61,792 nucleotides of DNA from an uncultured Atopobiaceae bacterium. GTDB taxonomy: Bacteria; Actinomycetota; Coriobacteriia; Coriobacteriales; Atopobiaceae. This document shows positions 1 through 61,792 of the stretch, piece by piece. The first letter of the stretch is position 1. Every line of letters starts with the position of its first letter. The stretch spans positions 1-61,792 of the forward strand of contig CANPVI010000001.1 of NCBI GenBank assembly GCA_947581665.1, given 5' to 3'. The notes beneath the pieces are model-generated. The model was not told the DNA's origin and did not search any database. It saw only the letters and a program-made list of their open reading frames with translations. The position numbers and the translations under genes were made by a program.

Positions 1-980
1 TACGCGCGCTGCAGGGGGATCATGCGGTCGACGACGGACGTTCCGAAGAACGCCCCCGCGAGCTCGATGCACGTCTGCCGGATAAAGGGCAGGACACGTT
101 CGCCGCGGTCGCCGTTTTTGTAGGGCAGGGGCCCCTCATAGAGGAGCTTGTCCGCCGCTACGATCTCCAACCGGCCCTCGGGGTACGCCCCCGTGGGACG
201 GGTATACCGTTCGATGAGGATCTCTCTTCCCTCTTCGGCATGCCGGCCGTCGCCGTCGAAGGCGCGCTTCCAGCCGCTCGCAGAGGAATAGGGCGCGAGA
301 GGGAATTCGTCGATCGTGCGCCCCGCAAGTTCGACGCCGAAGCGCTCATAGATGTCCGAAACGGGCACGGCTTTGGCGTGAATGATACTCTTGACCTCGG
401 ACATGGTACTCGCGGAGAGGCTGTCCGGGTAAATTTCGAAGGGAGAGAGCGCCGCCACGTTGACATCTCCCTCGTGGAGCGCGTGCCCCGTCTCGTCGGT
501 GCCGATCACCTTGCCCTCGGCAAAGTTCCACACGACCTTGTAAAAGCTCGTGCCACAGACCTCCGACCAGAGCGTCGCCTCGGAGATGACGCGTCCGAGG
601 TCGATGCGGTTTTTGACCGACTTTAAGATGCTCGACGCGATGCGGGCGACGTGCATGTCCGCTTCCGTGTCCGAGAAGGCACGGACTTCGAGGGTGGGCC
701 GCACCTTTGCGAGGCGGGCGAGACGGGTATCGATCGTGGGCGCGATGTGATTGAATGTGCGCCGCGATTCCCACAGAAAGCGTGCGCTCTCCTCCTCAAG
801 CTCCCCCTCGGGCGAGACGTCGCAGTACTGGTTGCCGCTCACGAAGTTCATGTTGAGCTCCCAGCCCCGTTCGAGCTGCCGCCGCATCTCCCTGCGCCGC
901 GCAAAGTCGGCATGGATGTCCCCGACGAGGGCAGCCTTCCGCGCTTCCTCCCGTCTTGCTTCCCATTCTTGTTCGTTCAT
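1..980 (-). CDS. phage portal protein (SPP1 Gp6-like), N-terminal ~326 aa; 3' end lies beyond the left window edge; belongs to the GC-rich flanking prophage
   Basis: Not in the ORF track because no stop lies in the window. Hand translation from ATG 980..978 (AGGAGG 4 nt upstream, ATGA overlap with previous ORF) gives MNEQEWEARREEARKAALVGDIHADF..WELNMNFVSGNQYCDVSPEGELEEES..LWSEVCGTSFYKVVWNF. This is portal-like and lies directly downstream of terminase. Confidence 0.7.
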   Translation of the reverse strand, partial: MNEQEWEARREEARKAALVGDIHADFARRREMRRQLERGWELNMNFVSGNQYCDVSPEGELEEESARFLWESRRTFNHIAPTIDTRLARLAKVRPTLEVRAFSDTEADMHVARIASSILKSVKNRIDLGRVISEATLWSEVCGTSFYKVVWNFAEGKVIGTDETGHALHEGDVNVAALSPFEIYPDSLSASTMSEVKSIIHAKAVPVSDIYERFGVELAGRTIDEFPLAPYSSASGWKRAFDGDGRHAEEGREILIERYTRPTGAYPEGRLEIVAADKLLYEGPLPYKNGDRGERVLPFIRQTCIELAGAFFGTSVVDRMIPLQRA

Positions 981-1270
981 GGTTCCTCCTTTTCAATGCT
1001 TTTGTTTTCGCTTTGGGTAAGTTCCGCAAACCTTCGGAGCAGACGCACTCTCTCCGCTTCGAGCTCCTCGTCCGAAAGACGGGCAAGGTCGGCTCCATCC
1101 TCCATCAGAAGTTTTGCCGCCTTCAGGTCGGGCGGAACGTCCTTTTTGGTCTCCTTGCGCTTGACGAGGCGCAGCTCGCCGTCCTTGGCGTCATACTCCT
1201 CGGTGACCTCCTCGAGGGAGTACCCAAGCGCAACTTTTAAGATGGCTTCCTTGATTTTATCGCACCCCAT
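977..1270 (-). CDS. small phage protein of unknown function between terL and portal (97 aa)
   Basis: ORF 977..1357 trimmed to ATG 1270, just after the terL stop (1275). Sequence MGCDKIKEAILKVALGYSLEEVTEEYDAKDGELRLVKRKETKK.. The stop overlaps the portal ATG. Confidence 0.45.
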   Translation of the reverse strand: MGCDKIKEAILKVALGYSLEEVTEEYDAKDGELRLVKRKETKKDVPPDLKAAKLLMEDGADLARLSDEELEAERVRLLRRFAELTQSENKSIEKEEP

Positions 1271-1274: not shown

Positions 1275-1913
1275 TCAAAACCCCCTTCGGCGCAGTCTGC
1301 GGATGCGCCTCGATTTATCGCGCTCGATGGCCGATCTGCCGCCCGAAGGACGGGCATTCTGCACCCCGCGCATCAAATAATAACGGATGGCGTCAAGCCC
1401 GTGGTCGTTTTCCTTGACGGGCCGTTCGCCGCTTCCCCAGAAGTATCCCTTGAACTCGCGGATGAGGTTGGGACAGCTCGAAAAGATGTAGAGGTCGGAC
1501 ATGCCGTTGCCGCGCCGCAGATAGCGCTTGACCTCCGCGATGCCGGCAAACACGTCCTTGTTGACGCGCGGATCGGCGAGGATGCCGCACTCGTAAAAGA
1601 GTTCGGTGACGCTCCTGCGGCCGTTTAAGGTCTTTGCCTCGGCGGCGCGGTCGATGATGGCTTTGAGACGCCCCCTTTCGTCCCGCTTCCAACCGAGGGA
1701 ATCGGAGATGCGGGAGATGGCTTCGGCGTGCTCGTCCACCCCCATGCCCGCGGCATAGTGCTCCGCAACGACGTAGACGTTGCCGTCGTAATCGGCCGCG
1801 CACCAGAGCGCGGCGAGCGGATTTTTGAGCCCCGGGTCGATGGAGATGACGTCCTGCCACTCGGGCGGGACGGAGAACGCTCGACCTGTGAAAAGTCTGA
1901 CTTGAAATAACGG
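1275..1913 (-). pseudogene. terL: terminase large subunit, C-terminal (nuclease-domain) part, cut off from its 5' part by the ~59.8-kb insertion
   Basis: ORF 1275..1745 plus the open frame upstream reads ..PPLFQVRLFTGRAFSVPPEWQDVISIDPGLKNPLAALWCAADYDGNVYVVAEHYAAGMGVDEH..ENDHGLDAIRYYLM. No ATPase domain is present on this side. GC is much higher than in the insert. Confidence 0.8.
1909..1913. other. left junction (attL) candidate crossover core, AACGG on + (CCGTT on coding strand)
   Basis: The same pentamer occurs at the right junction (61718..61722) in the same codon phase of the split terL. GC content and coding change abruptly here. Confidence 0.5.
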
Positions 1914-3545: not shown

Positions 3546-3574
3546 AATTGCCTCCATATTTTTCGTTATCAACT

Positions 3575-44685: not shown

Positions 44686-44701
44686 CAGCCACCGCCTGTC
44701 T

Positions 44702-45304: not shown

Positions 45305-45333
45305 ATCTCTCTTCCCCTTTTTTATTCTATCGT

Positions 45334-45415
45334 AAACGGCTGTTCACGATAGGTGCTTTTATTATAGCGATTCTCTTTGCCCTTGTCAATAGTTTTCTGT
45401 CGTACTTTTGCGACA
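45334..45415 (-). promoter_or_regulatory. lexA promoter: palindrome TGTCGCA-aaag-TACGACA, 8 nt, TTGACA-17-TATAAT, then a Cheo-type LexA box GAAC-N4-GTTT
   Basis: Palindrome 45398..45415, -35 at 45384..45389, -10 at 45361..45366, LexA box at 45334..45345 (inside CTATCGT..ACGATAG). Confidence 0.65.
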
Positions 45416-45745: not shown

Positions 45746-45749
45746 AAAA

Positions 45750-45966: not shown

Positions 45967-45984
45967 TGTCGCACTTATGCGACA
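45967..45984. promoter_or_regulatory. palindrome TGTCGCA-ctta-TGCGACA between divergent promoters (candidate operator)
   Basis: Perfect 7-bp arms. Same motif as at 45398, 48861 and 61360. Confidence 0.6.
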
Positions 45985-47351: not shown

Positions 47352-47401
47352 TATTTTATGTTTCCCTGTTGGTCTTTCATTGATGCCGGGGTATCCGCCT
47401 G

Positions 47402-47635: not shown

Positions 47636-47651
47636 CCCAATTATCCCTCCG

Positions 47652-48815: not shown

Positions 48816-48823
48816 ACACACCT

Positions 48824-48878
48824 ATTATAACATTCTGCGTTCCCCATGTCAATAATGACCTGTCGCAAAAGTGCGACT
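48824..48878 (-). promoter_or_regulatory. palindrome AGTCGCA-cttt-TGCGACA, 8 nt, TTGACA-17-TGtTATAAT
   Basis: -10 at 48824..48829, -35 at 48847..48852, palindrome at 48861..48878. Confidence 0.7.
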
Positions 48879-49994: not shown

Positions 49995-50018
49995 AAAGGG
50001 TATCCGTTGGAGGGTTTT

Positions 50019-50537
50019 ATGGGCAACATTTGCTGTGTCACTGGGCATCGGCCGAGTAGCTTCCCTTGGAATTTTTGGGATCCTGACAGTGTTCCTCGCC
50101 AAAAATATTTGCAAGTCATGGCATCTGCCATTGACCATGCTATCCGCGAAGACGGCGTTGACCGCTTCATCGCCGGGGGTGCAATCGGTGCTGATACCGA
50201 CTTTGCCGAAACCGTGCTACACTACAGAGACTGCATTCACGAACACATCCGCTTGGAAATCGCCGTCCCCTGCCCCAATCAAAACCTTAAATGGACCGAG
50301 CAAGACAAGGAACGGTATCAGCGGATCCTTGACTCCGCCGATTTGGTCACTACCGTTTCGGACCGCTACACTCGGTTTTGTATGCAAAAGCGAAACGAAT
50401 ACATGGTCGATAACTCCGACATCGTCTTCGCCTTTTGGAATAATACCATCGCCAAGGGCGGCACTTGGAACACCATTCAATATGCGAAGAAAAAGCAAAA
50501 GCGCATAGAATTATTTGTCCTCAACGATTATATTTGA
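50019..50537 (+). CDS. SLOG-family (DUF1273 / YpsA-like) protein
   Basis: MGNICCVTGHRPSSF..FIAGGAIGADTDFAE..; family-typical GHRP and GGAxGxD motifs. Confidence 0.75.
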   Translation: MGNICCVTGHRPSSFPWNFWDPDSVPRQKYLQVMASAIDHAIREDGVDRFIAGGAIGADTDFAETVLHYRDCIHEHIRLEIAVPCPNQNLKWTEQDKERYQRILDSADLVTTVSDRYTRFCMQKRNEYMVDNSDIVFAFWNNTIAKGGTWNTIQYAKKKQKRIELFVLNDYI

Positions 50538-50623
50538 CTGACCGCTTCCCTCTTTGCTCTGTGGTCTATCGGTTATTTCGCAAGGACAATTCTCATTTTA
50601 TTGCGCACCACTTGATTGGCATT

Positions 50624-50653
50624 GAGAGCAGCACGATCTGCTCTCTTTTTTTT
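50624..50653 (+). terminator. rho-independent terminator
   Basis: GAGAGCAG-cacgat-CTGCTCTC followed by TTTTTTTT. Confidence 0.75.
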
Positions 50654-50715
50654 GTCAATGGTTCTTTCGCCCCGACCGTTCTCGGTCACTTTATGGGCAA
50701 AAAGGAGGTGAACTT

Positions 50716-51843: not shown

Positions 51844-51858
51844 GGAGAATTTAACACT

Positions 51859-52290
51859 ATGGCACTCAAAAATTTCCAAGTCATCGAACTCATTTCGAGC
51901 AAGACCAAGGCGGCGATGACCGTCTATTTCGACAGGTTGAAGTTTAACACTCACACGGCTCCCGATCTCGACTACACTCTCTATGTGCAGTTGCTGATGG
52001 ACACCAACGGCAAGAATTTCGCCATCCAAGCCTGCGACAAGGATTCGGTCAATGCCGTTCCCTTCTCGCGTCCCAAGGATTCCAAGCCCTATCCCATCGT
52101 TGTCCGCACCCCGCAAGCCCTCAAGCAGATTCGCACTGCTATGGGATGGGACGATCCGCAAAAATACTATGTCGTGCCGGGACAGAAATTCTATGACGAA
52201 CGGGCAATCGTCTTCAACCTGAACGATGCCGAGGAATATCATGTCACCAAGCGCAAGGGACGGGATTCCGATGGCGAGTCCGAAGACTGA
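51859..52290 (+). CDS. hypothetical 143-aa protein tightly following recombinase 4
   Basis: AAGGAG SD 15 nt after the recombinase stop. MALKNFQVIELISSKTKAAMTVYFDRLKFNTHTAPDL.. Confidence 0.55.
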   Translation: MALKNFQVIELISSKTKAAMTVYFDRLKFNTHTAPDLDYTLYVQLLMDTNGKNFAIQACDKDSVNAVPFSRPKDSKPYPIVVRTPQALKQIRTAMGWDDPQKYYVVPGQKFYDERAIVFNLNDAEEYHVTKRKGRDSDGESED

Positions 52291-52385
52291 GCGCACCAAA
52301 ATGCGGTGACGTGTCCCGCCACCGCTAACCCAACAGGGAGTCGAAGCAATTCGGCTCTCTTATTCATAATGGCTCCGTTGCTCGG

Positions 52386-52414
52386 TAAAGAGAAAAGCGA
52401 CCTTGTCGGTCGCT
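52386..52414 (-). terminator. rho-independent terminator ending the methylase/GHKL/helicase operon
   Basis: Minus strand reads GAGCGACC-gacaa-GGTCGCT followed by TTTTCTCTTT. Confidence 0.65.
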
Positions 52415-52418
52415 CATC

Positions 52419-52991
52419 TTATGCGTTGATTATTACGATTTTGACATCGACAAGCCCCAAGGTTTTTCGTAAATTCTCCCTCTCGCTGTCCGTCAATAGC
52501 CTACCCGTATTTGACAAAAATAGATACATCTTAACTTGCATCGTTTCTTGTTCGGTGTCAATCAAGGCTCTTTTTTCTAACACTTTCCTCAATGCTGATT
52601 CCCATTTTAACACCGTTCCCTTTGCGGCAAATATAATCACCCCATCTGTTTCCGTAATGAAGGTTACGACTTGGTTCTTATCCGTTTGCAAGAGCAATGG
52701 TCCCTCTCGTCTTTCGAGCTCATATTGAACCTTTTCTGTAGAAAGCAATTCACCATTTTTCTTTTTTGCATACTTCCCTATAATGCAGTCTTTAATGTAT
52801 GTGCGAACCTTGTCCTTTCTCATATATTGAGCAAGGACTCCGCCTATTTGCGGATCTGCCGCCATCTCATCAAGCATTACTGTGCTATTAAAAAGGCCTT
52901 GGGAAAAGTATCCCTCCTCTTCCAATTGCTCCCTAATTCTGCTAACCAACTGCGCCTTAACTGCAGGGGGTATAACCACACGATTGCCCAT
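52419..52991 (-). CDS. hypothetical 190-aa protein, 4th gene of the methylase/GHKL/helicase operon
   Basis: The ATG overlaps the helicase stop (TAATG). No motif recognised. Confidence 0.6.
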   Translation of the reverse strand: MGNRVVIPPAVKAQLVSRIREQLEEEGYFSQGLFNSTVMLDEMAADPQIGGVLAQYMRKDKVRTYIKDCIIGKYAKKKNGELLSTEKVQYELERREGPLLLQTDKNQVVTFITETDGVIIFAAKGTVLKWESALRKVLEKRALIDTEQETMQVKMYLFLSNTGRLLTDSERENLRKTLGLVDVKIVIINA

Positions 52992-54649
52992 TAAAAATCC
53001 TCCGGGAACGATAATTTTTCGTTTTCATCGCAGTTCGCCACATCAGCGATGTCTGCCAACCATTCCATCATAAAGCTGCCTACTTTTTGGTCACTAAACG
53101 AAACAAGTCCGTTGCGAATATACATTGTTTCTGAGTCCAAGCACTTCTCCCTTGCCTCTTTATCCATTTGGATGACCTCTGCAATTCGTCTTATATCGGA
53201 TACAAAGTCGAGGACGATCACGCTCTTTTTTGTAGGACTTATTCTCAATCCGCGGCCTAACTGTTGTACAAAAATTCTTCTTGAATGTGTCGCCCGAAGA
53301 AAAACCAAAATGTTCACATCGGGGACATCTATCCCTTCATTTAAGACGTCGACTGCAGTAACGGCTTGGATTTTCCCTGCTGAAAAATCCATAAGGTTTT
53401 TTCTGCGGGTAAATTTATCCATTCCCGACAAGGAAGCACACGGGATGCCTGATACGGTCAAGAGTTTGGCAAACTTCTCCCCATGTTCAATGGATGGCGT
53501 AAAAATAATAATGCGTGGATTCGCTACTTCCTTGCAGGTCTGATGGATTTGAGAAATTATTGCCTCATCTCGCTGCGGAAGGAAAAGTCGCTTATTGAGG
53601 TCGCGTATACTATGCTTTTTGCTCGATGTTTCGTGAACGAAGTTCCAGTCTATATTGTCACAAAAAAGTCGATAGTCGATATCCGCAAGGTACTTGTCGC
53701 GCATTCCATCGACCAAGGAAACGGTGGCAATAGGCTCACCGAATATATCGCTCATCGACTTACCATCTCCCCGCCATGGGGTTGCAGTCATGCCAATTAA
53801 AAAATTCGGACTTAACGCCGAAAGGCACGATGCAAAACCATTAGCCAATGCGTGATGAGCTTCATCCACAATTACGACATCAAAGTCTTTTTCCTCTATG
53901 CCATTCAAGTAATTTGTGAATGTTTGATACAGCCCAAAATTGATGCCATCATAAATTAGCGGGGGATGTCCGCCAAAAAATGTCCGCGTTGGCACGTCTT
54001 TTGATATTTCCTTCCAAAAACTTTGCTCCAACTGCAATGCCAAATCTTGCGCATGGCATAAAACCAAGAACTTTCTGTTGCCCATTGACCATAGATAATT
54101 CGTCATACGGGCTGCTATCACCGTCTTCCCCAACCCTGTAGCAACAATATATAATGCCCGTTTGCCATGGTTCTCGTAAATGCTTTTGGCTTTGTTAACT
54201 ATATCTTCTTGATACGGACGCAACGGCCTCAATGCCTTAAATTCTGGCAACTGCGCAAGAAAATCCAACAAAAATCTGCCATTCCAGAGCTTCAATTCAA
54301 ATCCTTGCGCCTGCAACTCTCTTTGTCTTTTCCGTGCGCTTTCGGTGAAATCCACATTTGTGGCCACTACCGCTACACTCGCTCCGTAAACAGACATGGC
54401 AGTCATAACTTCCCTAACCGCTGTTGCGCCAACCATTTCGCCCATTGTCTTGGCTTTTACTTGGACCACCCATGTTTGTTTTCGCCCATTGAGTTTGCGC
54501 ACTCCTATGATGTCGGCTCCCATGTCACCCGTCTCACCAACGACTTCGACATTATCCCATCCAGCCAATATCATAAGCCGAGCGACCGCTCTTTCAAGCG
54601 CACGCCAATCGGTCCCTTTCATTATATTGTCAGTTAAAAAATATGCCAT
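52991..54649 (-). CDS. Mrr-type restriction endonuclease domain fused to a DEAD/DEAH-box (ResIII-like) SF2 helicase
   Basis: N-terminus ..GDMGADIIGV..WVVQVKAK.. (PD-(D/E)xK). Motif I is ATGLGKT, motif II VIVDEAHH, motif III TATPWR, plus a helicase-C region. Confidence 0.85.
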   Translation of the reverse strand: MAYFLTDNIMKGTDWRALERAVARLMILAGWDNVEVVGETGDMGADIIGVRKLNGRKQTWVVQVKAKTMGEMVGATAVREVMTAMSVYGASVAVVATNVDFTESARKRQRELQAQGFELKLWNGRFLLDFLAQLPEFKALRPLRPYQEDIVNKAKSIYENHGKRALYIVATGLGKTVIAARMTNYLWSMGNRKFLVLCHAQDLALQLEQSFWKEISKDVPTRTFFGGHPPLIYDGINFGLYQTFTNYLNGIEEKDFDVVIVDEAHHALANGFASCLSALSPNFLIGMTATPWRGDGKSMSDIFGEPIATVSLVDGMRDKYLADIDYRLFCDNIDWNFVHETSSKKHSIRDLNKRLFLPQRDEAIISQIHQTCKEVANPRIIIFTPSIEHGEKFAKLLTVSGIPCASLSGMDKFTRRKNLMDFSAGKIQAVTAVDVLNEGIDVPDVNILVFLRATHSRRIFVQQLGRGLRISPTKKSVIVLDFVSDIRRIAEVIQMDKEAREKCLDSETMYIRNGLVSFSDQKVGSFMMEWLADIADVANCDENEKLSFPEDF

Positions 54650-56991
54650 TATATCAACTCCCCTTTAAGGGTTGCAATGCTCCAAGCGCATTTCGTCATT
54701 TCATTTTTTGATAATCGCGCACTTTTTTCGCCTTGAACCAAAAGTGCATCTTTAAGCATTGATATGATCCTTTCTTTAGATTCGGCCTTGATGCGCTCCA
54801 TCGAATCTGCATTGCCCGTATTCGGCAAGGTGTTGTACTTCGCTCTGAACACTTTGCCATCAAACACATCGTCGGGGAACCTATCAACAAGCCTGATTAG
54901 TGTATTCAAGGGGACATATTGAATAATTCCGATAGATTCTGCCGTCCCTTCGTTATATGCCGTCAACAAATCTGGCTCCGTCAATAAAGCCGTTATTGTC
55001 GCCTCTTCTTCCCCTACGGATTCTTTGAGACAAGCAATAACTTCCTCATATTTATGCGCAAGAGCTGCCCCAAGACGTTCTTTGAATTCATCAAAAAACA
55101 TGGTCGCTTGCTCATTCAGCGAACTCTTATCGACTCTCATGTCTTTTAACTCTGATACGGTCAGTGCGCTATAGATGGATACAATATCCCCCACGCTATC
55201 CCGTGCTGCGAACTTGTTGGCGAGATATATCATCAGCAGGCTTTCGGGGTTGCACGACGGGAACTGAGCCAAAAGTTCATGTCGAGGATCGTAGAAGAAA
55301 TCGCATTCTATGCCATCGGAGAAAAACGCCGCTGGCACACGCTTCCCATTGTACCGAATAATCTCCGTTTTCATCTTATGAGCTCTAACATTCAATGGGT
55401 AGGGGTTGTATGCATATTGACGGGAGAGGAGAGCATTTTCCTCAGACCCTCTCAACAACTCATCACAAGTTGAAGAAGCCGTTTGTGACGGAACGGCTTT
55501 GTGGTGTTCTTCTTCGGGTGCAGCTTGAGGCTCTACATCTGCGCCCTCTTCGCCAAAGTAAGAACTCACATCATCAGAGGGAGCGTCGCCGACATCAACA
55601 TCGCCTGCATCTCCTGCGCCGAATGTCCCTATCTCTCGGTCTGCCTCCCTTACTGCTTGATACCATTTTTCATCGGAAATATAGTCGGCATCACCCTTAT
55701 AGAACCTGTCGGCAAACGCTTTTGCCACATCCTTAGGCAATACCAAATTCTTACTCCCTTTGTCTGGACGGCGATATGCTGTCGCAAGGATACCAACGGG
55801 GGATTCATTTTTATCCGCATAGCCGTATGCTTTTCTTGCTGTCGGGAGAATAGGACCTTGTCCGCGAATCGCCTCCATGGTCTGTATCCATGACAAATCC
55901 GTTCTTACGAAATCATTTTTTTGATATGTCGGCAAAAGGTAGTCGACCTCTACGACGCCCACTATTCTACCGCCAACCGTTGAACCCAATTCCACAGGAT
56001 ACTGAATGGTCGAGCTTCCCGTTGCACCATCTTCAAAATAAAATGCATCCTTGTTCGCAATCAGAATTTTCCGTCCATTTCGCACGAAATCTATGCCATA
56101 ATCATTTGTCGAAAAATAGCGTTGTATCCCAACCCATCCTTTGAGACGCTTTTGTCTTTTTACTATATTGGGCGGCAACGGCTCACCCCTTGACACGGCG
56201 ATTTCTATCTCATCCTCTTGCTCAGGCGAAAGATACCTGTTCCGCTCCATATCAAAATAGGTTTCGCCTAAAACCCTATCAATTTTTTGAACGGCATAAA
56301 CCCTTTGTCCATCCCTTATGACATACCGCTCAGGGGACCATACGCAATATTTTTTGGGTACGAGCCTTCTGCCCTGCACATAAATTTCGATATTGTGTTT
56401 CTCAAGCAGAAGTGAATATACATTTTCGAGCTGCCTGCGAATAGCAGCCGTCTTTGTCGAAATATCGTTATAAATACCGTTGTTGAGTTTTGAGATGATT
56501 ATTTTGGTCCCGTGTTCGGAAATGTCGTCTTTTTCCTTATAAACCACGGGAGTCTTAAATGATTTTTGCGATATCAATTGACTGAAATCTATCTCGACTC
56601 CTACCCATTTATCATCCCCTGCTCTGGTAGTAAATATTGTAGATTTATCTCCCAAGCGGGCTGTCGCAATATTATAGCCCATCCCAAAAAGACCCAAATT
56701 ATTGATTGGATCGTTGCCAGAATACCCTGCTTTGACAGCATTCGTCATTTGTTCAAGTGTCATCCCGCAGGCATTATCTATTATTTCAATGGTTCTCTCT
56801 TTGAGCCCCACTCGTTCGGGCGACCAAATAATTTGGATCCTACGATCATCCCTGTCTGCATCATTTGCAAGGAACGCATCCACGGAATTATCAATGAGTT
56901 CAGCAAAGCATTGCCACGGCGAGAAGGGGATCTCTCCCAACATCCTTAACGTTCTGGGGGTAGGTGTAATATCTACAAACGAATCAGCCAT
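54649..56991 (-). CDS. GHKL-superfamily ATPase (HATPase_c_3 / MORC-MutL-like) with a long uncharacterised C-terminal region
   Basis: N box ..FAELIDNSVDA.., G1 ..IDNACGM.., G2 ..GLFGMGYN... 780 aa. The stop overlaps the helicase ATG. Confidence 0.8.
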   Translation of the reverse strand: MADSFVDITPTPRTLRMLGEIPFSPWQCFAELIDNSVDAFLANDADRDDRRIQIIWSPERVGLKERTIEIIDNACGMTLEQMTNAVKAGYSGNDPINNLGLFGMGYNIATARLGDKSTIFTTRAGDDKWVGVEIDFSQLISQKSFKTPVVYKEKDDISEHGTKIIISKLNNGIYNDISTKTAAIRRQLENVYSLLLEKHNIEIYVQGRRLVPKKYCVWSPERYVIRDGQRVYAVQKIDRVLGETYFDMERNRYLSPEQEDEIEIAVSRGEPLPPNIVKRQKRLKGWVGIQRYFSTNDYGIDFVRNGRKILIANKDAFYFEDGATGSSTIQYPVELGSTVGGRIVGVVEVDYLLPTYQKNDFVRTDLSWIQTMEAIRGQGPILPTARKAYGYADKNESPVGILATAYRRPDKGSKNLVLPKDVAKAFADRFYKGDADYISDEKWYQAVREADREIGTFGAGDAGDVDVGDAPSDDVSSYFGEEGADVEPQAAPEEEHHKAVPSQTASSTCDELLRGSEENALLSRQYAYNPYPLNVRAHKMKTEIIRYNGKRVPAAFFSDGIECDFFYDPRHELLAQFPSCNPESLLMIYLANKFAARDSVGDIVSIYSALTVSELKDMRVDKSSLNEQATMFFDEFKERLGAALAHKYEEVIACLKESVGEEEATITALLTEPDLLTAYNEGTAESIGIIQYVPLNTLIRLVDRFPDDVFDGKVFRAKYNTLPNTGNADSMERIKAESKERIISMLKDALLVQGEKSARLSKNEMTKCAWSIATLKGELI

Positions 56992-57009
56992 ATTGATATC
57001 TCCTTTCGG

Positions 57010-57966
57010 TTATGCCTTAAAATATTCTTCGATTGAACAGCCCACTTTATATGCCAATAGCGGAGGGACCGCATTCCCAATCTGTCGCATATTTCGCGTT
57101 AAGCTATGGCGAAAAACGAATGTGTCTGGAAATGTTTGAATCCTTGCGCACTCTCTTACGGTCAGTCGGCGTGGCAACTCATAATGAAACTGTATATGAG
57201 AGCGCGAATTGGCTCTGACAGTATAGGCGGGCTCATCTCGCTTACTCACCTCATCGCCTTGGACACCGATGCCGGGGGTTTTGTTTGCCTTGAAATATTG
57301 GCTCTGATTCGGTATGCTTTCATCGGTCACATCGATCAAGTCGCCAATTGCCCATTCGATTGATTTGACATCCTCGCTTTCTGCAGGGCGAACGGGAAAA
57401 CCTTTTTTCTCAAATATGTCATCCCTAACGCCAATTATAATAATCCTCATTCGCATTTGTGGAACACCGAACTTTTTACAAGGCATTTGCCATATCGTAA
57501 AATGATATCCTTCGGCCTCAAAGTCGGACAGGATTTGTTTAAGGACTTCACCCTTCTTCATGTTCAATAAATTATATACATTTTCACCAATAACCATTTT
57601 AGGTTTGTGAAATTGCATATACCGCTTCATCGCCAGATAAAGTCTTCCGCGTTCTGAATTCAGTCCCAAAAGTGGACCGCATAACGAGAAGTCTTGGCAA
57701 GGAAAACCGCCTGCTAAGATATCCGCATACGGCATCTTGGAAACATCTGCGATGCCTAAATCCTTTTGTTCCGCCACCTTATGTATGTTGTCATTATATG
57801 TCTGCACACACAGCGGATCAAAATCATAGGCGGCAATGACATTAAAAGGCAACTTACTGTAGGTTTCGCCCTTATATTCAAATCCGCCTTGGAAGCCGAG
57901 GTCGAATCCACCGCACCCGCAGAAAAATGAAATTACAGAATATTCGGTCTGTTTCTTTTGAGCCAT
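57010..57966 (-). CDS. DNA (cytosine-5)-methyltransferase
   Basis: FFCGCGGFDLG (I), GFPCQDFS (IV), ENV (VI), QMRMR (VIII), LTVRECARIQTFPD (IX), GNAVPP (X). Confidence 0.9.
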   Translation of the reverse strand: MAQKKQTEYSVISFFCGCGGFDLGFQGGFEYKGETYSKLPFNVIAAYDFDPLCVQTYNDNIHKVAEQKDLGIADVSKMPYADILAGGFPCQDFSLCGPLLGLNSERGRLYLAMKRYMQFHKPKMVIGENVYNLLNMKKGEVLKQILSDFEAEGYHFTIWQMPCKKFGVPQMRMRIIIIGVRDDIFEKKGFPVRPAESEDVKSIEWAIGDLIDVTDESIPNQSQYFKANKTPGIGVQGDEVSKRDEPAYTVRANSRSHIQFHYELPRRLTVRECARIQTFPDTFVFRHSLTRNMRQIGNAVPPLLAYKVGCSIEEYFKA

Positions 57967-58155
57967 GTTTACCTCATTTAATTCGGTAGTATCATAATTG
58001 CGATGAATACTCCCTTGATTATGCTGAAAGCATACGAGTTTATTTTACCATAAAAACGCCGAAATAGCAATAGATTAGCCCCTGTCAAATGGAATTTAGC
58101 ACCCATTTTCTCCGATAAAGGTCTTGCTCATCAGCGCATGATTACTCCTATGCTC

Positions 58156-58812
58156 TCAAAATGCTTGTCCCCTTGGCAAAGACATAATGTATTTTCTCAC
58201 GGCCTCACTCATTATATTGGTTACCGTGACCGCAGTTCTATTGTTTACTATAATGGCTGCTGTGGTTTTGTCATCATCGGATCCGACCGCAATTTTCCCA
58301 TGTATAACCATGGGTTCTCCTGCCTTTAGCGTGGCAAGTTGGTCAAAATTCGAGAAATGGATCCCATTGCAAGCCCAATCGTAAAATTCATCAAACTTCT
58401 CAAAGTCCTCTGCGACCTTCTTTTTTACGGCTCCATCCCTCAGAGATTCTCCGCTTTCTGCATTACCATAATTCAATTTTTGTTTCCTCAGTACACGCAA
58501 TAAGAACTGGTCTGCGCCCAACAATTTCACTCTATATGCCGTCATGGGAAGGTCGGCGAGCATCCGCATAAGAGCGGTTTGAACAATTATATTCCCCTTT
58601 TTTGCGGCATCAGCGATTGCATCCAAAATGTTTACGGCTCGGTTAAAAAGCATAAGTATTGTAAAAGTCCGAGCATAAATTGTAAACCCATCTGCTACAG
58701 CAATTTGCGCAAATTGACCAATTATGTCCTTTTTCCTCTCTTCAATTTTATCGATGGAATCGGCAAGCGCAAGCTGCAATTTTTGGGACACATCCCTATC
58801 ATTCTCTGCCAT
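58156..58812 (-). CDS. hypothetical 218-aa protein (last gene of the WYL-headed operon)
   Basis: Starts 14 nt after the upstream stop. Composition suggests a mostly helical protein. No motif recognised. Confidence 0.6.
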   Translation of the reverse strand: MAENDRDVSQKLQLALADSIDKIEERKKDIIGQFAQIAVADGFTIYARTFTILMLFNRAVNILDAIADAAKKGNIIVQTALMRMLADLPMTAYRVKLLGADQFLLRVLRKQKLNYGNAESGESLRDGAVKKKVAEDFEKFDEFYDWACNGIHFSNFDQLATLKAGEPMVIHGKIAVGSDDDKTTAAIIVNNRTAVTVTNIMSEAVRKYIMSLPRGQAF

Positions 58813-58825
58813 TCAGTCCACCCTC

Positions 58826-59617
58826 TCAATCCAAATGACCATGATACTTTACCTTGTCTGCGCCAAGATCCCTTAACGCCTTCTCTATTATCCGTGACTT
58901 GACATCCATTATATACTTGGTTGTCCCAAGCGTGTCTGGGGTGAGAACATACCACTTGCCGTCAAACTTGAATGTAAAATATACATCGTCGACCTCATAT
59001 TCTTGCTCCATTTCCAACCCATAGAACGCATCGGCAAGCGTTTGCAAGGCCTCCCCAACGGCATTGGGCAAGACGGTCCCGTCCTGAATAACAATGAGTC
59101 CGTCATCTTCATCCGATTCCACGGCTTGTGGGACATAGAGCTTTGTGCTGAACATCTCGCCCAAAACACCATAAAAATTCAAAAATTCAGTCAGCGAATC
59201 TATGAATTGAGGATAATCCTTGGGTAGTTCGGTTTCGTTAAAATGGCCGCTGACTTTTCGTTCGCTTCCATCATCGAATAGCACAGTCACTTTGTACTTA
59301 CGGATATCTTGCGAGTCGCCATCGTCCGCTGCTTTGAAGTCGGCATCCATTGCAAAGAGGGTTTTAGCGTCAAAGCGGTCAAGAAAATCTGACACAGCTT
59401 CTGCCGAATGATACTTTAAGGTCAGCCCACACTCTTCTGCCATTTTTCGAGATATCGTTACCACTTCGGTCTGGCGGTCAATGACGATTTTTTCCTTGTT
59501 ATCCCAACGGATAATCATCGGCCCCTCTTGATTGGGAATCGGATTATCCTCTCTCACGATGGTAACCGTGTGCTTGAAATTAAAGGTGATTTTTTGTATA
59601 ATTCTCTTTTTTCTCAT
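58826..59617 (-). CDS. hypothetical 263-aa protein
   Basis: ATGA overlap with the upstream gene. No motif recognised. Confidence 0.6.
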   Translation of the reverse strand: MRKKRIIQKITFNFKHTVTIVREDNPIPNQEGPMIIRWDNKEKIVIDRQTEVVTISRKMAEECGLTLKYHSAEAVSDFLDRFDAKTLFAMDADFKAADDGDSQDIRKYKVTVLFDDGSERKVSGHFNETELPKDYPQFIDSLTEFLNFYGVLGEMFSTKLYVPQAVESDEDDGLIVIQDGTVLPNAVGEALQTLADAFYGLEMEQEYEVDDVYFTFKFDGKWYVLTPDTLGTTKYIMDVKSRIIEKALRDLGADKVKYHGHLD

Positions 59618-59916
59618 CCTTTTTCCCTTGTTCTCGCTTCGGCAAGCAGTATATCAAGCCGTGCTGCGATGCGATTTTCCTTTTCATTCAGCTTTTCAAT
59701 ATCAAATTCAAGGGCCTTGCGCTCATTCTGCAAAGCCTTGTATTGTTTGCCGCCGGGGGTTGCAAGGATCGTATCCACTATCCTGCCCTGCTTTTTCAAA
59801 AGTGTTTCCCTTTGGCGGCTGACAGCCAACCGTTGTGCAAGGAGATCGTCAGTCCTCTCTCCTAACTGTTTGTCGGTCCACCGACGCATTCTCTTTTTAT
59901 AAAGCCACTTTATCAT
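59614..59916 (-). CDS. hypothetical 100-aa basic coiled-coil protein
   Basis: MIKWLYKKRMRRWTDKQLGERTDDLLAQRLAVSRQRETLLKK.. Confidence 0.55.
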   Translation of the reverse strand: MIKWLYKKRMRRWTDKQLGERTDDLLAQRLAVSRQRETLLKKQGRIVDTILATPGGKQYKALQNERKALEFDIEKLNEKENRIAARLDILLAEARTREKG

Positions 59917-59925
59917 CTGCGCAAA

Positions 59926-60276
59926 CTACTCTTCGACTCTCTCGTAGCCGTTTGTCAAGAGTTCTTCTACCCATTCCTCAAAGGTAGAGAAGTCCTTCTT
60001 GCTCCACTCGTACTCAATGGTAACCGTTTGGTTCTTTGCCACGAGTTTCCACTTATTGGCGGTTTCCCTTGCTTGGAAGAGAATATCGCCCATTTTGAAC
60101 GTGCCTCTGTCCGAGTTGGTTGTCTTTACGACTACTTCTACTTTTGTCATCTCTTTATCCTCCATATATTTGTCATATTGTTTTGCGGTCATGCAGACTG
60201 GCCCTTTCTCCGTTTCCACTCGCATAATGAAGTCATCATCGGACACGGTGTCTGGCTCTAAAAATTCATGTTTCAT
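59926..60276 (-). CDS. hypothetical 116-aa protein
   Basis: Start set to ATG 60276 (AAGGGGTGGAG SD), 11 nt after the WYL gene stop. MKHEFLEPDTVSDDDFIMRVETEKGPVCMTAKQY.. Confidence 0.6.
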   Translation of the reverse strand: MKHEFLEPDTVSDDDFIMRVETEKGPVCMTAKQYDKYMEDKEMTKVEVVVKTTNSDRGTFKMGDILFQARETANKWKLVAKNQTVTIEYEWSKKDFSTFEEWVEELLTNGYERVEE

Positions 60277-60287
60277 CGCTCCACCCC

Positions 60288-61295
60288 TTATTCCGAATAG
60301 TTTTTGAGTGCTTGCTGTATGTGTTCCTTGATGCGGTCCACCACGGTCTGCGGTGCTGTCACTTTTAGCGTTTCTCCAAACCCACACACCCACGAAAGGA
60401 ACGGATTGCTTATCTGGACTTCGACCGAAAATTCTATCTTGCCATCGCCTTTCTCACGGATTTTGATGCCATCTCCAAACTTGTCGTACACGGCGTCCAG
60501 AATGCCCACAGAACCCTCAAAGGTTACTTCCTCGGTTTCCCCTCCGAACATACTCATGAGGCTCCTCTGGTGGCGTTTAAGGTCGAAGTCTGCCTTCTCT
60601 TTACTTGGTGTGATTTTCTCGTCAAGCATCCGTACTTCGTCCATCTTGTCCACTCGATATTGCACCACGTTGCCGTGGTAGTCATTGTAGCAAAACAGGT
60701 AGTATTTATCGTCCTTGAACACGGTTGCTATGGGGTTCACCACATACCACCTTTTCTCGCCGGGGACAGATGTCCGCATCCGATATTGCCGTTGGTGCTT
60801 GGCATCGTAGTCGAAGTAATAAAAGCCGACTTTGTGTTTGTTGGTAATCGCTTGTGCTATTTCGCTGACCGAATAATAAATGCTTTCGTTCGTCCCCTTG
60901 ACCGTTCCGAACTGCACGATATTGTGTTTCAGCACCTCCGCTTTCTGCGTCCCCGCGAGTTGCGCTATCTTGTCTATCAGCACTGGGGTTTTCTTCTCGG
61001 TGATGAAACTTGCCGCCTGCACAGCGTCCATAAGGATTTGTAATTCGGGCAAGTCAAAGCTGCGATCCACGACATAGTATTCGTTGGTGCGTCCTCGGTT
61101 GCTCAATATCTCATAGCCGAATTGGTTAAGTTCTTCGATGTTGCGGTAGAGGGTACGGCGGTCGCACGAGATGCCGCACTCCGCCAATCTTGCTATAAGG
61201 TCAGCGGTACTCATCGGGTGGTCTTCGTCCGTTTCCCGATTGAGGATTTCCCAAATTTTCAGATACTTGATTTTTGAAATGCTGTCCGTTACCAA
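60288..61295 (-). CDS. WYL-domain transcriptional regulator (HTH-WYL-WCX; BrxR/CapW/YafY type)
   Basis: N-terminal HTH ..YLKIWEILNRETDEDHPMSTADLIARLAECGISCDRRTLYRNIEEL.. WYL core ..HKVGFYYFDYD..RWYVVNPIATVFKDDKYYLFCY.. TTG start with GGAGGG SD. Confidence 0.8.
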   Translation of the reverse strand: MVTDSISKIKYLKIWEILNRETDEDHPMSTADLIARLAECGISCDRRTLYRNIEELNQFGYEILSNRGRTNEYYVVDRSFDLPELQILMDAVQAASFITEKKTPVLIDKIAQLAGTQKAEVLKHNIVQFGTVKGTNESIYYSVSEIAQAITNKHKVGFYYFDYDAKHQRQYRMRTSVPGEKRWYVVNPIATVFKDDKYYLFCYNDYHGNVVQYRVDKMDEVRMLDEKITPSKEKADFDLKRHQRSLMSMFGGETEEVTFEGSVGILDAVYDKFGDGIKIREKGDGKIEFSVEVQISNPFLSWVCGFGETLKVTAPQTVVDRIKEHIQQALKNYSE

Positions 61296-61321
61296 GGTCT
61301 ATCCCTCCATTATGCTCTCCT

Positions 61322-61377
61322 ATTATATCATATCAGTCACCCTTTTGTAAAGGGCGAGATGTCGCAAAAGTGCGACA
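61322..61377 (-). promoter_or_regulatory. WYL-operon promoter: palindrome TGTCGCA-cttt-TGCGACA, 8 nt, TTTACA-18-TGaTATAAT
   Basis: -10 at 61322..61327, -35 at 61346..61351 (inside CCCTTT-aca-AAAGGG), palindrome at 61360..61377. Confidence 0.65.
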
Positions 61378-61508
61378 ATTTATTGTTTCCTTTGCTCATA
61401 AAAAATAGCCGAGAGCTGCCCCACCCTCGGCTTAAAAAGGCGGCATCTATTATCGGATTTGCCCGCTTGTTTTTGGCTATATTTTATGTCGATTTGAGCG
61501 TGTTTTTT

Positions 61509-61708
61509 AGACTTTTCATCGGTCGTAAAATTGCCCAAATCAGACTTTTCATAGAGTACACGCTCACTTCAAACCCCCAAAACTGCTTGTTCCTTTGTGG
61601 CAGAGAAATCAAATCGTTGTTCCTATGAAAAGTCTGCACCCCGTCAAAACCCCATATTTTGGGGCAAAACTGCCCCCAAAATGGCATATTTAGTGTTAGA
61701 CTTTTTCC
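61509..61708. repeat. four copies of AGACTTTT(T)C(A/C) near the right end of the element
   Basis: Direct copies at 61509..61519, 61542..61552 and 61698..61708. Inverted copy ATGAAAAGTCT at 61625..61635. Also CAAAACTGC twice (about 61579 and 61665). Confidence 0.6.
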
Positions 61709-61717
61709 GCTCAAACA

Positions 61718-61722
61718 AACGG
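61718..61722. other. right junction (attR) candidate crossover core AACGG
   Basis: Identical pentamer and codon phase as at 1909..1913. GC jumps immediately to the right. Confidence 0.5.
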
Positions 61723-61792
61723 GGGGATAACGTGCAGCGTTTCCTCGAATTCGGGGTAGACGAGCCCCTCCCGCACCCCGAATTTGCCGTAC
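61718..61792 (-). pseudogene. terL: terminase large subunit, upstream fragment (continues beyond the right window edge)
   Basis: The reverse complement reads YGKFGVREGLVYPEFEETLHVIPP, then enters element DNA and hits a stop (..PPFV*). Confidence 0.6.

Follow-up and report, generated by a model that had tools for sequence, protein, structure and literature searches.

The end of a prophage in an uncultured Atopobiaceae genome raises the question of whether four proteins of no recognised family, encoded behind a WYL-domain regulator, make up one new anti-phage system. Regulators of the WYL type sense ssDNA and are encoded at the head of defence islands (PMC9122601, PMC9122588, PMC11662680); one of them, DriD, has its own promoter among the members of the DNA-damage regulon under its control (PMC10853764). 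In the stretch that we analysed (the window, 61,792 nucleotides), the minus-strand order is WYL, g116, g100, g263 and g218, with gaps of 11, 9, −4 and 13 nt that we re-derived at exactly the values given in a preliminary description of this DNA; genes for a methylase, a GHKL ATPase and an Mrr-helicase come after a further gap of 189 nt (Table 1). From the WYL promoter to the two hairpins behind g190 there is no terminator-like hairpin of more than six pairs, so that one long transcript is possible. Taken together, our results give this prophage end the appearance of a regulated cargo island and not of one new four-protein defence machine.

The WYL region forms the accessory arm, on the attL side, of a temperate phage of ~59.8 kb, which spans window positions ~1914–61716 and interrupts terL of a resident phage-like element. 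By tblastn, residues 255–279 of the split host terL are found at 61791..61717 and the remainder at 1913..1314; the prophage is flanked by the two terL halves and the portal gene. The junction at ~61716 is ~340 bp upstream of the palindrome of the WYL operon, which agrees with the extreme position in the prophage that had been claimed for the cluster. The left end of the prophage, whose sequence is common to the sister elements, contains ATGAAAAGTCT copies at 61509, 61542 and 61625 and a GGGGCA/TGCCCC hairpin, and the terminator-like hairpin listed in Table 1 would shield the WYL promoter against read-through from the junction. The phage has its own terL, portal, major capsid protein and tape measure genes in the window, encodes a primase and an SNF2 helicase, and carries DNA-modification genes (SAM synthetase and several methylases). 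As three large serine recombinase genes lie at its far end, we infer that it was integrated by these enzymes. One Cro/CI-type protein was seen nearby, of 80 aa and without a sensor domain.

Table 1 Features of the WYL region, the adjoining cargo and the box-associated promoters (window coordinates)
Feature	Position	Strand	Details
Non-coding attL-side end of prophage	61378..61716	-	begins GTTTGAGCGGAAAAAGTCTAAC directly after truncated terL codons ...HVIPPF
Intrinsic-terminator-like hairpin AGCCGAG...CTCGGCT + T-run	61407..61432	-	10 pairs, 6 G-C; T-rich tail
WYL box 1, perfect dyad TGTCGCA-CTTT-TGCGACA	61360..61377	.	8 bp upstream of −35
WYL operon promoter TTTACA-18 nt-TATAAT, extended TG	61322..61351	-	promoter score 11/12
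wHTH-WYL-WCX transcription regulator, 335 aa	60288..61295	-	TTG start; Pfam, PADLOC
g116, putative acidic soluble protein, 116 aa	59926..60276	-	variable slot; pI 4.7
g100, putative basic protein, 100 aa	59614..59916	-	variable slot; pI 10.2; helical/coiled-coil by composition
g263, 263 aa	58826..59617	-	N-domain (~aa 5–162) in uncharacterised domain family; C-terminal 100 aa unique
g218, all-helical protein, 218 aa	58156..58812	-	last gene before R-M cargo
C5 cytosine DNA methyltransferase	57010..57966	-	first cargo gene; Pfam DNA_methylase 2e-64; PADLOC MTase_II 1.5e-79
GHKL (MORC-like) ATPase, 780 aa	54649..56991	-	HATPase_c_3 2.2e-11; Morc6_S5 weak
Mrr_cat nuclease + superfamily-2 helicase fusion (ResIII + Helicase_C)	52991..54649	-	PADLOC type IV REase 2e-39
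g190, no assigned family	52419..52991	-	last cluster gene; followed by two terminator-like hairpins, 52395-52415 and 52303-52325
WYL box 2	48861..48878	.	8 bp upstream of TTGACA-17-TATAAT; promoter match 12/12
WYL box 3, perfect dyad	45967..45984	.	26 bp upstream of TTGACT-17-TATAAT, g134 promoter
WYL box 4	45398..45415	.	8 bp upstream of TTGACA-17-TATAAT of lexA-like cassette

The regulator has the HTH-WYL-WCX architecture ascribed to it: WYL (40.7 bits, cut-off 21.8) and WCX (36.7 bits, cut-off 23.9) are above the Pfam cut-offs, an HTH_11 match falls under its own (20.4 bits vs 25), and PADLOC WYL models match at 3e-26. The solved relative closest to it by sequence is DriD (E 3e-4 over WYL+WCX); solved BrxR chains gave no sequence match at E<0.01. 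Among sister alleles, its dN/dS is 0.01–0.05.

We scanned the window for the palindrome TGTCGCA-N4-TGCGACA, allowing up to two mismatches and taking the expectation from shuffles. It occurs in four copies at no more than one mismatch (61360, 48861, 45967 and 45398), compared with 0.27 expected. Box 1 precedes the WYL operon promoter, the top-scoring promoter-like site in 52000–61792; box 2 precedes the promoter of a very acidic 389-aa protein with long Asp/Glu runs (g389, 47652–48821) and the genes that follow it; box 3, flanked by divergent promoter-like sites, precedes g134 (45440–45844); and box 4 precedes a cassette of lexA-like (44702–45304; LexA_DNA_bind+Peptidase_S24), Y-family polymerase (43399–44685; IMS polymerase) and yolD-like (43101–43475; YolD) genes. 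In 41–61.8 kb, the highest-ranking promoter matches on the minus strand are the four beside the boxes, three of which share the spacing box-8 nt-(−35)-17/18 nt-TATAAT. The palindrome that the WYL operon had been said to share with the LexA/SOS cassette does stand upstream of the cassette, at 45398; that it controls the cassette is what this placement suggests.

In the sister elements the box (TGTCATA / AGTCGTA...TGCGACA) occupies the same place upstream of WYL, and operons with a 50%-identical WYL carry TGTAGCGTAATAGCTACA or TGTAGCGGTAAACCGACA 8 nt before TTTACA, a related dyad at this 8-bp spacing standing in L031 and L032. The box travels with WYL, and the layout of box and promoter recurs before operons whose WYL homologue is as little as 50% identical. 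Wherever the invariant half-site TGCGACA is retained, the predicted recognition helix is the identical DRRTLYRNI; with a different half-site the helix is different too (HRTTLYEDI). We infer that the WYL regulator binds the 18-bp dyad as a dimer, although a different HTH protein of the phage may occupy it instead. A separate operator is probable for the LexA-like protein: a GAAC-N4-GTT(T/C) box (TGAACAGCCGTTTA, 45333–45346) lies between the −10 and the ribosome-binding site of its gene, and its counterpart in the relative L030 (CGAACAAGTGTTCA) is at the same place.

That the four downstream proteins belong to no family holds in part: none has a significant Pfam, PHROGs, PADLOC or NCBIfam match, but the N-domain of g263 has homologues. 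An exhaustive phmmer search with g263 gave 195 matches at E≤1e-3, all confined to this domain, and Pfam domains were found in none of ten sampled N-domain relatives. The AF2 model of the domain (pLDDT >90) is a beta-sheet-plus-helix structure for which Foldseek found no neighbour in the PDB (best E 0.019, TM ≤0.2). Sampled relatives sit in unrelated neighbourhoods; in L032–L035 a 437-aa relative lies downstream of a 50%-identical WYL. We treat g116 and g100 as putative proteins, ORFs without a confirmed homologue: no homologues turned up among phage records, in viral contigs or in the PDB, each has no more than 1–2 sequences in its 90%-identity cluster, and the sole hint for g116 is a sub-threshold match to DUF7020 (E 0.0012, 19.5 bits vs a cut-off of 25). 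The preliminary description was right in calling g100 basic and g218 helical, the latter being all-helical in its AlphaFold model.

The g218 protein has 18 homologues at 55–61% identity, with WYL upstream and R-M downstream in every context read, and their alignment has 73 invariant columns. Its AF2 model (pLDDT 80.9, pTM 0.78) has no fold neighbour in the PDB or BFVD; the structure prediction and Foldseek check proposed earlier produced no neighbour for either model, and none of the four ORFs could be matched to a defence family or a known structure. The gene is under purifying selection (dN/dS 0.11–0.18) with shuffled alleles, its dS being far higher than that of WYL (1.9 vs 0.3 within the same element pairs). 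The more distant WYL operons L030–L035 are without g218, so that its partnership with this WYL clade is not obligate. Of the four ORFs, g218 is the one with a conserved role, most plausibly in exclusion or defence or as a partner of the regulator; a defence role of individual ORFs, above all g218, is possible on the evidence of position.

Comparison with related elements bears directly on the question of a single system. Across seven sister lineages, whose WYL is 71% identical, WYL and the 218-aa protein are the sole recurrent members. The sisters lack g116, g100 and g263; in their slot stand unrelated genes, which code for a 103-aa protein together with either a Zn-ribbon protein (88/102 aa) or a protein of 254 aa. 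In the more distant L030, an R-M system comes directly after WYL with nothing between. R-M or defence cargo lies downstream in every relative, including LlaJI/BpuJI/McrBC-type R-M, SLATT+SMODS and UvrD, and the R-M cargo of the sister elements has its own small HTH controller gene, which gives it the appearance of a separate unit. The earlier statement that WYL heads a stretch of R-M/defence genes is thus borne out in every related element examined. The claim that the four ORFs form one undescribed multi-protein system is not supported, as three of them are swapped in the sisters and the ORFs do not behave as one conserved system.

The explanation that we favour, at somewhat better than an even chance, is that WYL controls a stress-inducible accessory regulon here whose cargo varies, and that the four ORFs are separately acquired genes under one WYL-controlled promoter and not a four-component machine. 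The regulator, as a dimer, would occupy the dyad before its own promoter, and the same box would place the g389 operon, g134 and the lexA-like/Y-family polymerase/yolD cassette in its regulon. By analogy with CapW, BrxR and DriD, the signal would be ssDNA or a related ligand arising from DNA damage or restricted infection; this ligand would alter DNA binding by the regulator and switch the small regulon on. The direction of regulation is uncertain given that the box is upstream of −35, unlike the sites of those three regulators; as all four promoters are near consensus, however, repression relieved by the signal is likelier than activation. The order of the cargo would be WYL, a variable slot (here g116, g100 and g263), g218, and interchangeable R-M, represented in this window by a Dcm methylase, the MORC-like GHKL ATPase, the Mrr-helicase and g190. 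Variability of the slot is compatible with some cooperation, and the genes of this particular slot may work jointly.

One may postulate instead a new multi-component anti-phage system made up of WYL and the four ORFs, either by themselves or joined by the four R-M-like genes in a unit of 8–9 genes. Tight packing, a possible single transcript, a position at the head of a defence island and the failure of known families to account for any of the four proteins would all fit; the loss and replacement of three of the four genes in sister elements that keep WYL and g218, the immediate R-M of L030, the separately controlled R-M of the sisters and the scattered neighbourhoods of the g263 domain make this quite unlikely. 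The retention of WYL and g218, the sole cluster genes that, like the end sequence, persist throughout the phage family, could alternatively mark them as a core regulatory module of the phage with passengers between, for example a sensor of DNA damage, independent of LexA, that sets g218 free as an antirepressor and so induces the prophage. Boxes before several early-arm promoters agree with this idea, as does a lone Cro/CI-type protein without a sensor domain, which fits induction by antirepressor. We nevertheless consider it unlikely: divergence of g218 so far beyond that of WYL is unusual for a fixed partner, 50%-identity WYL operons do without it, it resembles no known antirepressor in PHROGs or in PDB/BFVD folds, and the box-controlled genes look accessory (an acidic protein, an SOS-mutagenesis cassette) and not like replication or lysis genes.

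Other alternatives concern the slot genes themselves. Their products might serve the phage as counter-defence, or as helpers for its DNA or its own R-M, expressed upon induction or entry, and not protect the host. The acidity of g116 and g263 (pI 4.7–4.8), the Asp/Glu-rich protein driven by the same box and the heavy investment of the phage in DNA modification point in this direction; composition by itself is weak evidence, however, no anti-restriction family in Pfam or PHROGs matches, and the g263 N-domain model is without a structural neighbour, so that we find this distinctly improbable. We hold it to be just as improbable that g116 and/or g100 are not real genes and that the operon is effectively WYL, g263 and g218. 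Their missing homologues, their tiny clusters and the weak ribosome-binding site of g100 would be expected of spurious ORFs, yet with genes packed so tightly head to tail there is no alternative coding option, a good Shine-Dalgarno sequence (GGGGTGGAG) precedes g116, and the one large-database search did not return even the two proteins themselves, which means that an absence of homologues is not established.

The accessory-regulon reading has several known counterparts. Prophage and satellite defence hotspots such as those of P2/P4 likewise have conserved flanks (here WYL, g218 and the element end) that bracket fast-exchanged cargo near the attachment site; the phage family and host phylum differ, and a dedicated WYL regulator is present here. 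BrxR (Picton et al. 2022, PMC9122601; Luyten et al. 2022, PMC9122589) is a wHTH-WYL-WCX protein encoded first in its island. Its own promoter contains an inverted repeat, further boxes occur elsewhere in the island, and mosaic restriction/defence cargo lies downstream. Our locus differs in having no BREX genes, in being phage-borne and in a host outside the Proteobacteria (97% of BrxR homologues were proteobacterial), in its 7-4-7 box upstream of −35 (11-5-11 and downstream of −10 for BrxR), and in a regulon that extends to an SOS-mutagenesis cassette ~16 kb away. CapW, the ssDNA-sensing WYL repressor of CBASS (PMC9122588, PMC11662680), shares the three-domain architecture and a palindromic operator of ~20 bp, and supplies the expected logic of derepression on a DNA-damage signal; its operators overlap −10, whereas the box here ends 8 bp before −35, and the window has no adjacent CBASS genes, SLATT+SMODS being carried further downstream in sister elements. 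DriD, the WYL protein that in Caulobacter activates a DNA-damage regulon independent of LexA (PMC10853764, PMC13004042), is similar in its 7-bp half-sites with an A/T-rich centre and in having sites in its own promoter and before DNA-damage genes (here lexA-like/umuC/yolD). The DriD box, ATACGAC-N7-GTCGTAT, overlaps the place of the −35 in promoters without one, whereas the promoters here have TTGACA/TTTACA and TATAAT, so that activation is not needed. Finally, the methylase, the GHKL ATPase (weakly S5-like) and the Mrr-superfamily-2 helicase resemble the MORC/GHKL R-M operons of Iyer, Abhiman and Aravind (2008, PMC2292703); this likeness is limited to genes 52419–57966, to the exclusion of the four ORFs, and g190 is an extra gene here. 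The GHKL ATPase also weakly resembles the N-terminal part of the BbrUII/HgiDII family of restriction enzymes.

The 335-aa regulator (WYL) at the head of the operon carries a central WYL domain (PF13280, 40.7 bits against a cut-off of 21.8, residues 144–223) and a C-terminal WCX dimerisation domain (PF25583, 36.7 bits against a cut-off of 23.9, residues 255–330) in Pfam, and PADLOC WYL models match it at 3e-26. The N-terminal HTH_11 match (residues 43–69) reaches 20.4 bits, under the cut-off of 25. This architecture is consistent with membership of the wHTH-WYL-WCX class, with the wHTH match sub-threshold. The nearest solved relative by sequence is DriD, and the alignment with it spans both WYL and WCX. 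Behind the regulator lie four ORFs, named here by their length in amino acids (g116, g100, g263 and g218), with successive intergenic spacings of 11, 9, −4 and 13 nt. The preliminary description of these five ORFs, their gaps, the HTH-WYL-WCX head (with its sub-threshold HTH) and the palindrome proved accurate, as did the placement of the operon at the prophage end, where it forms the first attL-side transcription unit of a ~59.8 kb prophage. A 111-aa HTH_11 protein encoded elsewhere in the window is dissimilar to the WYL N-terminus and was set aside.

Features of the WYL operon, its promoters and the surrounding prophage
Feature	Position	Strand	Description
WYL regulator	60288-61295	minus	335 aa; Pfam WYL + WCX, PADLOC
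g116	59926-60276	minus	116 aa, acidic, soluble
g100	59614-59916	minus	100 aa, basic, soluble
g263	58826-59617	minus	263 aa, acidic, soluble
g218	58156-58812	minus	218 aa, near neutral, soluble
P_WYL	61351-61322 (-35 to -10)	minus	TGTCGCACTTTTGCGACA-8-TTTACA-18-TATAAT
P_g389	48824-48852 (promoter)	minus	AGTCGCACTTTTGCGACA-8-TTGACA-17-TATAAT
P_lexA-like		minus	TGTCGCAAAAGTACGACA-8-TTGACA-17-TATAAT
Fourth box	45967		26 nt upstream of TTGACT-17-TATAAT, divergent promoter region
Divergent trio	50007-52290	plus	YpsA/SLOG protein (176 aa); short serine recombinase (375 aa, Resolvase+Recombinase); 143-aa protein of no assigned family
g389 region	46794-48821	minus	389-aa protein (g389) with long Asp/Glu runs, no family match; then the 230-aa HExxH protein
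lexA-like / Y-family polymerase / YolD cassette	43101-45415	minus	self-contained
HTH_11 protein	41736-42071		111 aa
Phage's own terL	25216-26766	minus	
Three tandem large serine recombinases	2019-6884	minus	all phrog_95; 517, 556, 536 aa
Resident element	1-2018 and 61717-61792	minus	terL, 89-aa gene, P22/SU10-type portal
ATGAAAAGTCT copies	61509-61519, 61542-61552, 61625-61635, ~61695-61705, 1888-1898		direct and inverted

As had been noted from the sequence, none of the four ORFs could be assigned to a family: no significant match was found in Pfam, PHROGs, PADLOC or NCBIfam. In PADLOC-DB v2 the defence models gave zero matches for g263 and g218, a best E of only 0.011 for g116, and for g100 a match limited to a small segment of a PDC-S02 model (E 9e-4, 17 bits), which is not significant; a DUF7020 match of g116 in Pfam is sub-threshold. 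No relative of g116 or g100 was recovered from 50,697 phage records (tblastn) or from the viral contigs scanned, and a search with g116 gave nothing among PDB sequences. The g218 protein has 18 relatives at 55–61% identity, a family with 73 invariant columns clustered in residues 57–160, and dN/dS among sister alleles is 0.11–0.18, which indicates a constrained protein. In one pair of sister elements (L011/L015) dS is 1.94 for g218 against 0.30 for the neighboring WYL gene, a disparity indicating that g218 alleles have been reshuffled by recombination. No g218 match was recovered from the 50,697 phage records by tblastn, from viral contigs by profile scan or from PDB sequences with the family profile; a metagenome scan yielded two short contigs with identical gene order. 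For g263, a word-seeded search found no relative, and an exhaustive phmmer search of 1.84 billion representatives returned 195 proteins at E ≤ 1e-3 (57 at E ≤ 1e-10), all of which cover residues ~5–162 only, usually as one domain within proteins of 160–700 aa. None of the 10 relatives scanned has a Pfam domain, and the three neighborhoods read were all short and uninformative. Relatives of this N-domain (P0020–P0168; viral contig L032, 12860–14173) are often fused to a C-terminal 'YIFCSVEF...VVVPVG...P.PL.K.K.I.R' domain that is also without a Pfam match.

Structure prediction and Foldseek, proposed earlier as a check, were run for g218 and the g263 N-domain and gave confident models but no fold neighbor. 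The AlphaFold model of g218 is all-helical (pLDDT 80.9, pTM 0.78) with a disordered loop at 151–176 and has no neighbor in PDB and BFVD, and the g263 N-domain is modeled as a beta-sheet-plus-helix fold (pLDDT >90) with none in PDB; Foldseek matches of the two models were generic helical-bundle or beta-sandwich noise (E ≥ 0.019, TM ≤ 0.38). The g218 family, always found with a WYL regulator of this kind, is a testable candidate for a new function, and the g263 N-domain, a family of ~160 residues with 195 members and a confident predicted fold, is a second.

Close packing of genes of unassigned family downstream of a WYL gene does not by itself make them a single system, and comparison with sister elements separated a conserved core from exchangeable cargo. 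We read the g218 contexts of six clusters, which together with the window make seven lineages. All of the sister contexts begin with a truncated terL or a terL-portal-capsid block, followed by a conserved end sequence, a WYL gene (335 aa, 71% identical to that of the window), a gene of 88, 102 or 254 aa, a 103-aa gene and the g218 homolog. After g218 come a small HTH gene, one or two Dcm methylases and a McrBC/LlaJI/BpuJI-type enzyme, and this R-M cargo is often trailed by SLATT+SMODS and UvrD. By BLASTP and tblastx, the window and its sisters have in common only the end sequence, WYL, g218 and, generically, Dcm; no counterparts of g116, g100 or g263 were found in the sister elements, where unrelated genes take their place. 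A more distant set of IMG/VR contigs has WYL homologs at 50–54% identity (L030–L035). In L030, which adjoins a tRNA attachment site, an HNH protein and WYL are followed directly by an HTH-Dcm-BpuJI-Dcm R-M system and then by a cassette of lexA-like (48% identical) and umuC (68% identical) genes. In L031 an RNase_T-family exonuclease and WYL precede several small genes of no assigned family and a LlaJI system, and in L032–L035 the exonuclease-WYL pair is followed by small unassigned genes, including one for a 437-aa protein with the g263 N-domain.

These gene orders indicate that WYL and restriction-type cargo are constant, and that the stretch between them is exchangeable and sometimes absent. 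The proposal of a novel four-protein defence system is weakened accordingly, as only WYL and g218 recur across the seven g218 lineages, and a co-evolving four-component system is contradicted by the exchange or absence of the genes between WYL and the cargo. The locus, judged by comparative gene order, instead fits a regulated cargo slot. The proposed defence-type setting stands insofar as WYL heads R-M cargo, but not as regards the four ORFs as one system; what points to a defence role for them is their position, and the slot and cargo proteins of unassigned family are candidates and nothing more. Megablast of 52000–61792 against phage and plasmid collections gave no match, and no Rfam family was found in the same interval. 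In the WYL clade at 50% identity (L031, 2100–3160; L032, 9015–9968), a gene for a DEDDh 3'-5' exonuclease of the RNase_T family precedes WYL in the same transcription unit. A predicted sensor of ssDNA is thereby paired with an enzyme potentially able to generate or remove it.

The adjoining cargo, and only this part of the locus, has a methylase, a GHKL ATPase, a nuclease and a helicase in one operon, the composition of MORC/GHKL-type R-M (DNA_methylase 2e-64, HATPase_c_3 2.2e-11, Mrr_cat 1.3e-18, ResIII 4e-27 and Helicase_C in Pfam). Its Dcm, GHKL and Mrr-helicase genes match the MORC-type R-M operons predicted by Iyer et al. 2008 (PMC2292703). On its inner side the island is bounded by the divergent trio of plus-strand genes. 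Homologs of the trio recombinase (45%) and 143-aa protein (31%), the pair at 50716–52290, stand directly upstream of the exonuclease-WYL operon of L031, so the island may be a present or past nested mobile or invertible unit.

The palindrome TGTCGCA-N4-TGCGACA occurs in 4 copies in the window against 0.27 expected, and it is indeed common to the WYL promoter and the LexA/SOS cassette, as was first noted from the sequence. Three minus-strand sites share one layout, in which the 18-bp box is followed by 8 nt, a −35, 17–18 nt and TATAAT. The four box-associated promoters are the best minus-strand promoter matches in 41–61.8 kb, and P_WYL, with a terminator-like hairpin just before it, is the top promoter-like site in 52–61.8 kb. 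The perfect dyad lies 8 bp upstream of the P_WYL −35, and this position is kept among WYL homologs of 50–100% identity. The boxes ahead of WYL in sister elements all keep the promoter-proximal half-site TGCGACA but vary in the distal one. The operons of L032 and L031, with WYL at 50% identity, are preceded by TGTAGCGTAATAGCTACA or TGTAGCGGTAAACCGACA, 8 nt before TTTACA-17-TATAAT. The predicted recognition helix reads DRRTLYRNI in every case where TGCGACA is retained, and HRTTLYEDI where the half-site differs.

One may postulate that the box is instead bound by the LexA-like protein, whose gene it precedes and which has LexA_DNA_bind and Peptidase_S24 domains, with an IMS-family polymerase and a YolD-like protein encoded next. 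Both the window cassette and that of L030 have a separate GAAC-N4-GTT(T/C) box between −10 and RBS, a position and type that we take to be as expected for a Firmicutes LexA operator; across the window this Cheo-type pattern shows no enrichment (125 copies, 119 expected). We set the LexA-like protein aside on this argument, which is purely positional. The covariation of half-site and helix, the conserved placement and the separate LexA-type box together lead us to infer that the TGTCGCA box is the putative operator of the WYL protein.

A scan of genome collections for box plus −35 found this element again in a Clostridia MAG (L026); the four other loci recovered are unrelated and carry none of the window's proteins. 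In another Clostridia MAG (L023, 7795–7826), an 18-mer identical to the P_WYL box stands 8 nt before TTGACA, ahead of paralogous genes of 232 and 73 aa with no assigned function; no WYL gene occurs in the 8 kb covered. The SOS cassette of the window has two kinds of box, the GAAC-N4-GTT(T/C) box between −10 and RBS and the WYL box upstream of its −35. The 48–68% identical lexA-like/polymerase pair of L030 (7700–9871), downstream of the WYL/R-M island, has a perfect CGAACAAGTGTTCA box. The start codon of g389 lies only ~6 nt past −10, so its mRNA may be leaderless, and the next gene encodes a 230-aa protein with an HEIRH (HExxH) motif; neither protein has a Pfam match.

The regulator departs from its characterized relatives in both context and operator position. 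BrxR heads a BREX island and has its box downstream of −10 (PMC9122601, PMC9122589), whereas PADLOC found no BREX protein among the nine products downstream of WYL, the sole Brx match nearby being a weak helicase-domain match of BrxHI (4e-5) on the Mrr-helicase. CapW adjoins CBASS and has an operator overlapping −10 (PMC9122588, PMC11662680), whereas no CD-NTase or CBASS effector was found in the window cluster with Pfam or PADLOC. DriD binds a CGAC-N7-GTCG box that replaces the missing −35 in promoters without one (PMC10853764, PMC13004042); here the box is GTCGCA-N4-TGCGAC, and it lies just upstream of a good −35 (TTGACA or TTTACA). The regulator thus lacks the distinguishing features of BrxR, CapW and DriD alike.

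One explanation for these observations is that a WYL dimer would sit on the boxes in the lysogen, and that DNA damage or restricted infection would produce ssDNA, a demonstrated ligand of CapW, DriD and PafBC (PMC11662680, PMC10853764, PMC11804915). The ssDNA would then switch a regulon comprising the WYL operon with its cargo, the g389 operon, g134 and the SOS-mutagenesis cassette, and the WYL-operon transcript possibly reads through into the MORC-type R-M genes. Since the promoters are near consensus, repression lifted by a signal is favored. The sequence architecture, its conservation and the gene content are observed; that WYL binds the boxes, which ligand it senses, in which direction it regulates and whether g116, g100, g263 or g218 act in defence are to be read as predictions. 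We consider it rather unlikely, though worth stating, that g218, alone or with a slot occupant, represents an undescribed protein family of novel helical fold that acts against phages or in superinfection exclusion, and that an ssDNA-sensing, phage-encoded WYL regulator couples the defence island to the SOS-mutagenesis cassette through one shared operator upstream of the −35, an arrangement unlike those of BrxR, CapW and DriD. As gatekeepers of defence islands, WYL regulators are known mainly from Proteobacteria, and a phage-borne Clostridial example with a predicted multi-promoter regulon, heading a cargo hotspot, is a variant on this known theme. Its putative operator, differently placed in the promoter and present at four promoters, links a restriction/defence island to a lexA-like/translesion-polymerase cassette; if WYL binds these boxes, a single sensor of DNA damage would let the prophage coordinate mutagenesis with protection of its host. 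With one regulator, four promoters and two uncharacterized protein families, the locus offers a good experimental entry.

A complete phage gene set lies on the minus strand (PHROGs, Pfam), including SNF2 helicase, primase, methylases, SAM synthetase, portal, major capsid protein, tape measure and tail fibre, and the large serine recombinases are located at one end (recombinases 2 and 3 overlap by ~60 nt as listed). Comparison with a related intact block by tblastn placed terL residues 267–466 at 1913..1314, a small gene at 1261..1070 and the portal at 941..3, with terL residues 255–279 at 61791..61717. The terL frame is continuous over both junctions (...HVIPPF + SVPPEW...; the intact homolog in L019 reads HVIPPFSVPKEW), and the split gene at the two window ends indicates that ~1914–61716 is one prophage inside the terL of a resident phage-like element. 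Gene set, end-located recombinases and in-frame split target are all as expected of a prophage integrated by large serine recombinases, and the same element and junction occur in L026, a Clostridia MAG in GTDB.

The resident terL is split at about codon 278, with the crossover apparently within a shared (G)TT, and reconstruction of the attP arms gives imperfect inverted repeats (AGACTTTTCACAGG...GGAAAAAGTCT). Sisters with the same end sequence (TTGTTTGAGC.ATAAAAGTCTAAC) use two different targets in the same resident element, as seen by comparing L015/L011/L039 with L017/L019/L021 (junctions L015:7890–7910 and L019:6365–6385). One target is inside terL, leaving Terminase_6N fragments of 273–289 aa, and the other is the 3' end of the capsid gene (...CDWALFEQ*); GATTG.GC..TTT is common to both. 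These phages seem to target the structural genes of a competitor or satellite for insertion. Copies of ATGAAAAGTCT at both prophage ends (5 at ≤1 mismatch against 1.27 expected) may be arm sites for a recombinase or directionality factor; L030 has a different 6-copy repeat, TAATCGTGCAA, adjoining its tRNA attachment site. The prophage gene products include a DNA methyltransferase fused to ParB, an amidoligase, a SAM synthetase and a C5 methylase of 622 aa (22335–23702, 27313–28302 and 30281–33264), a set suggestive of heavy investment in DNA modification or anti-restriction.
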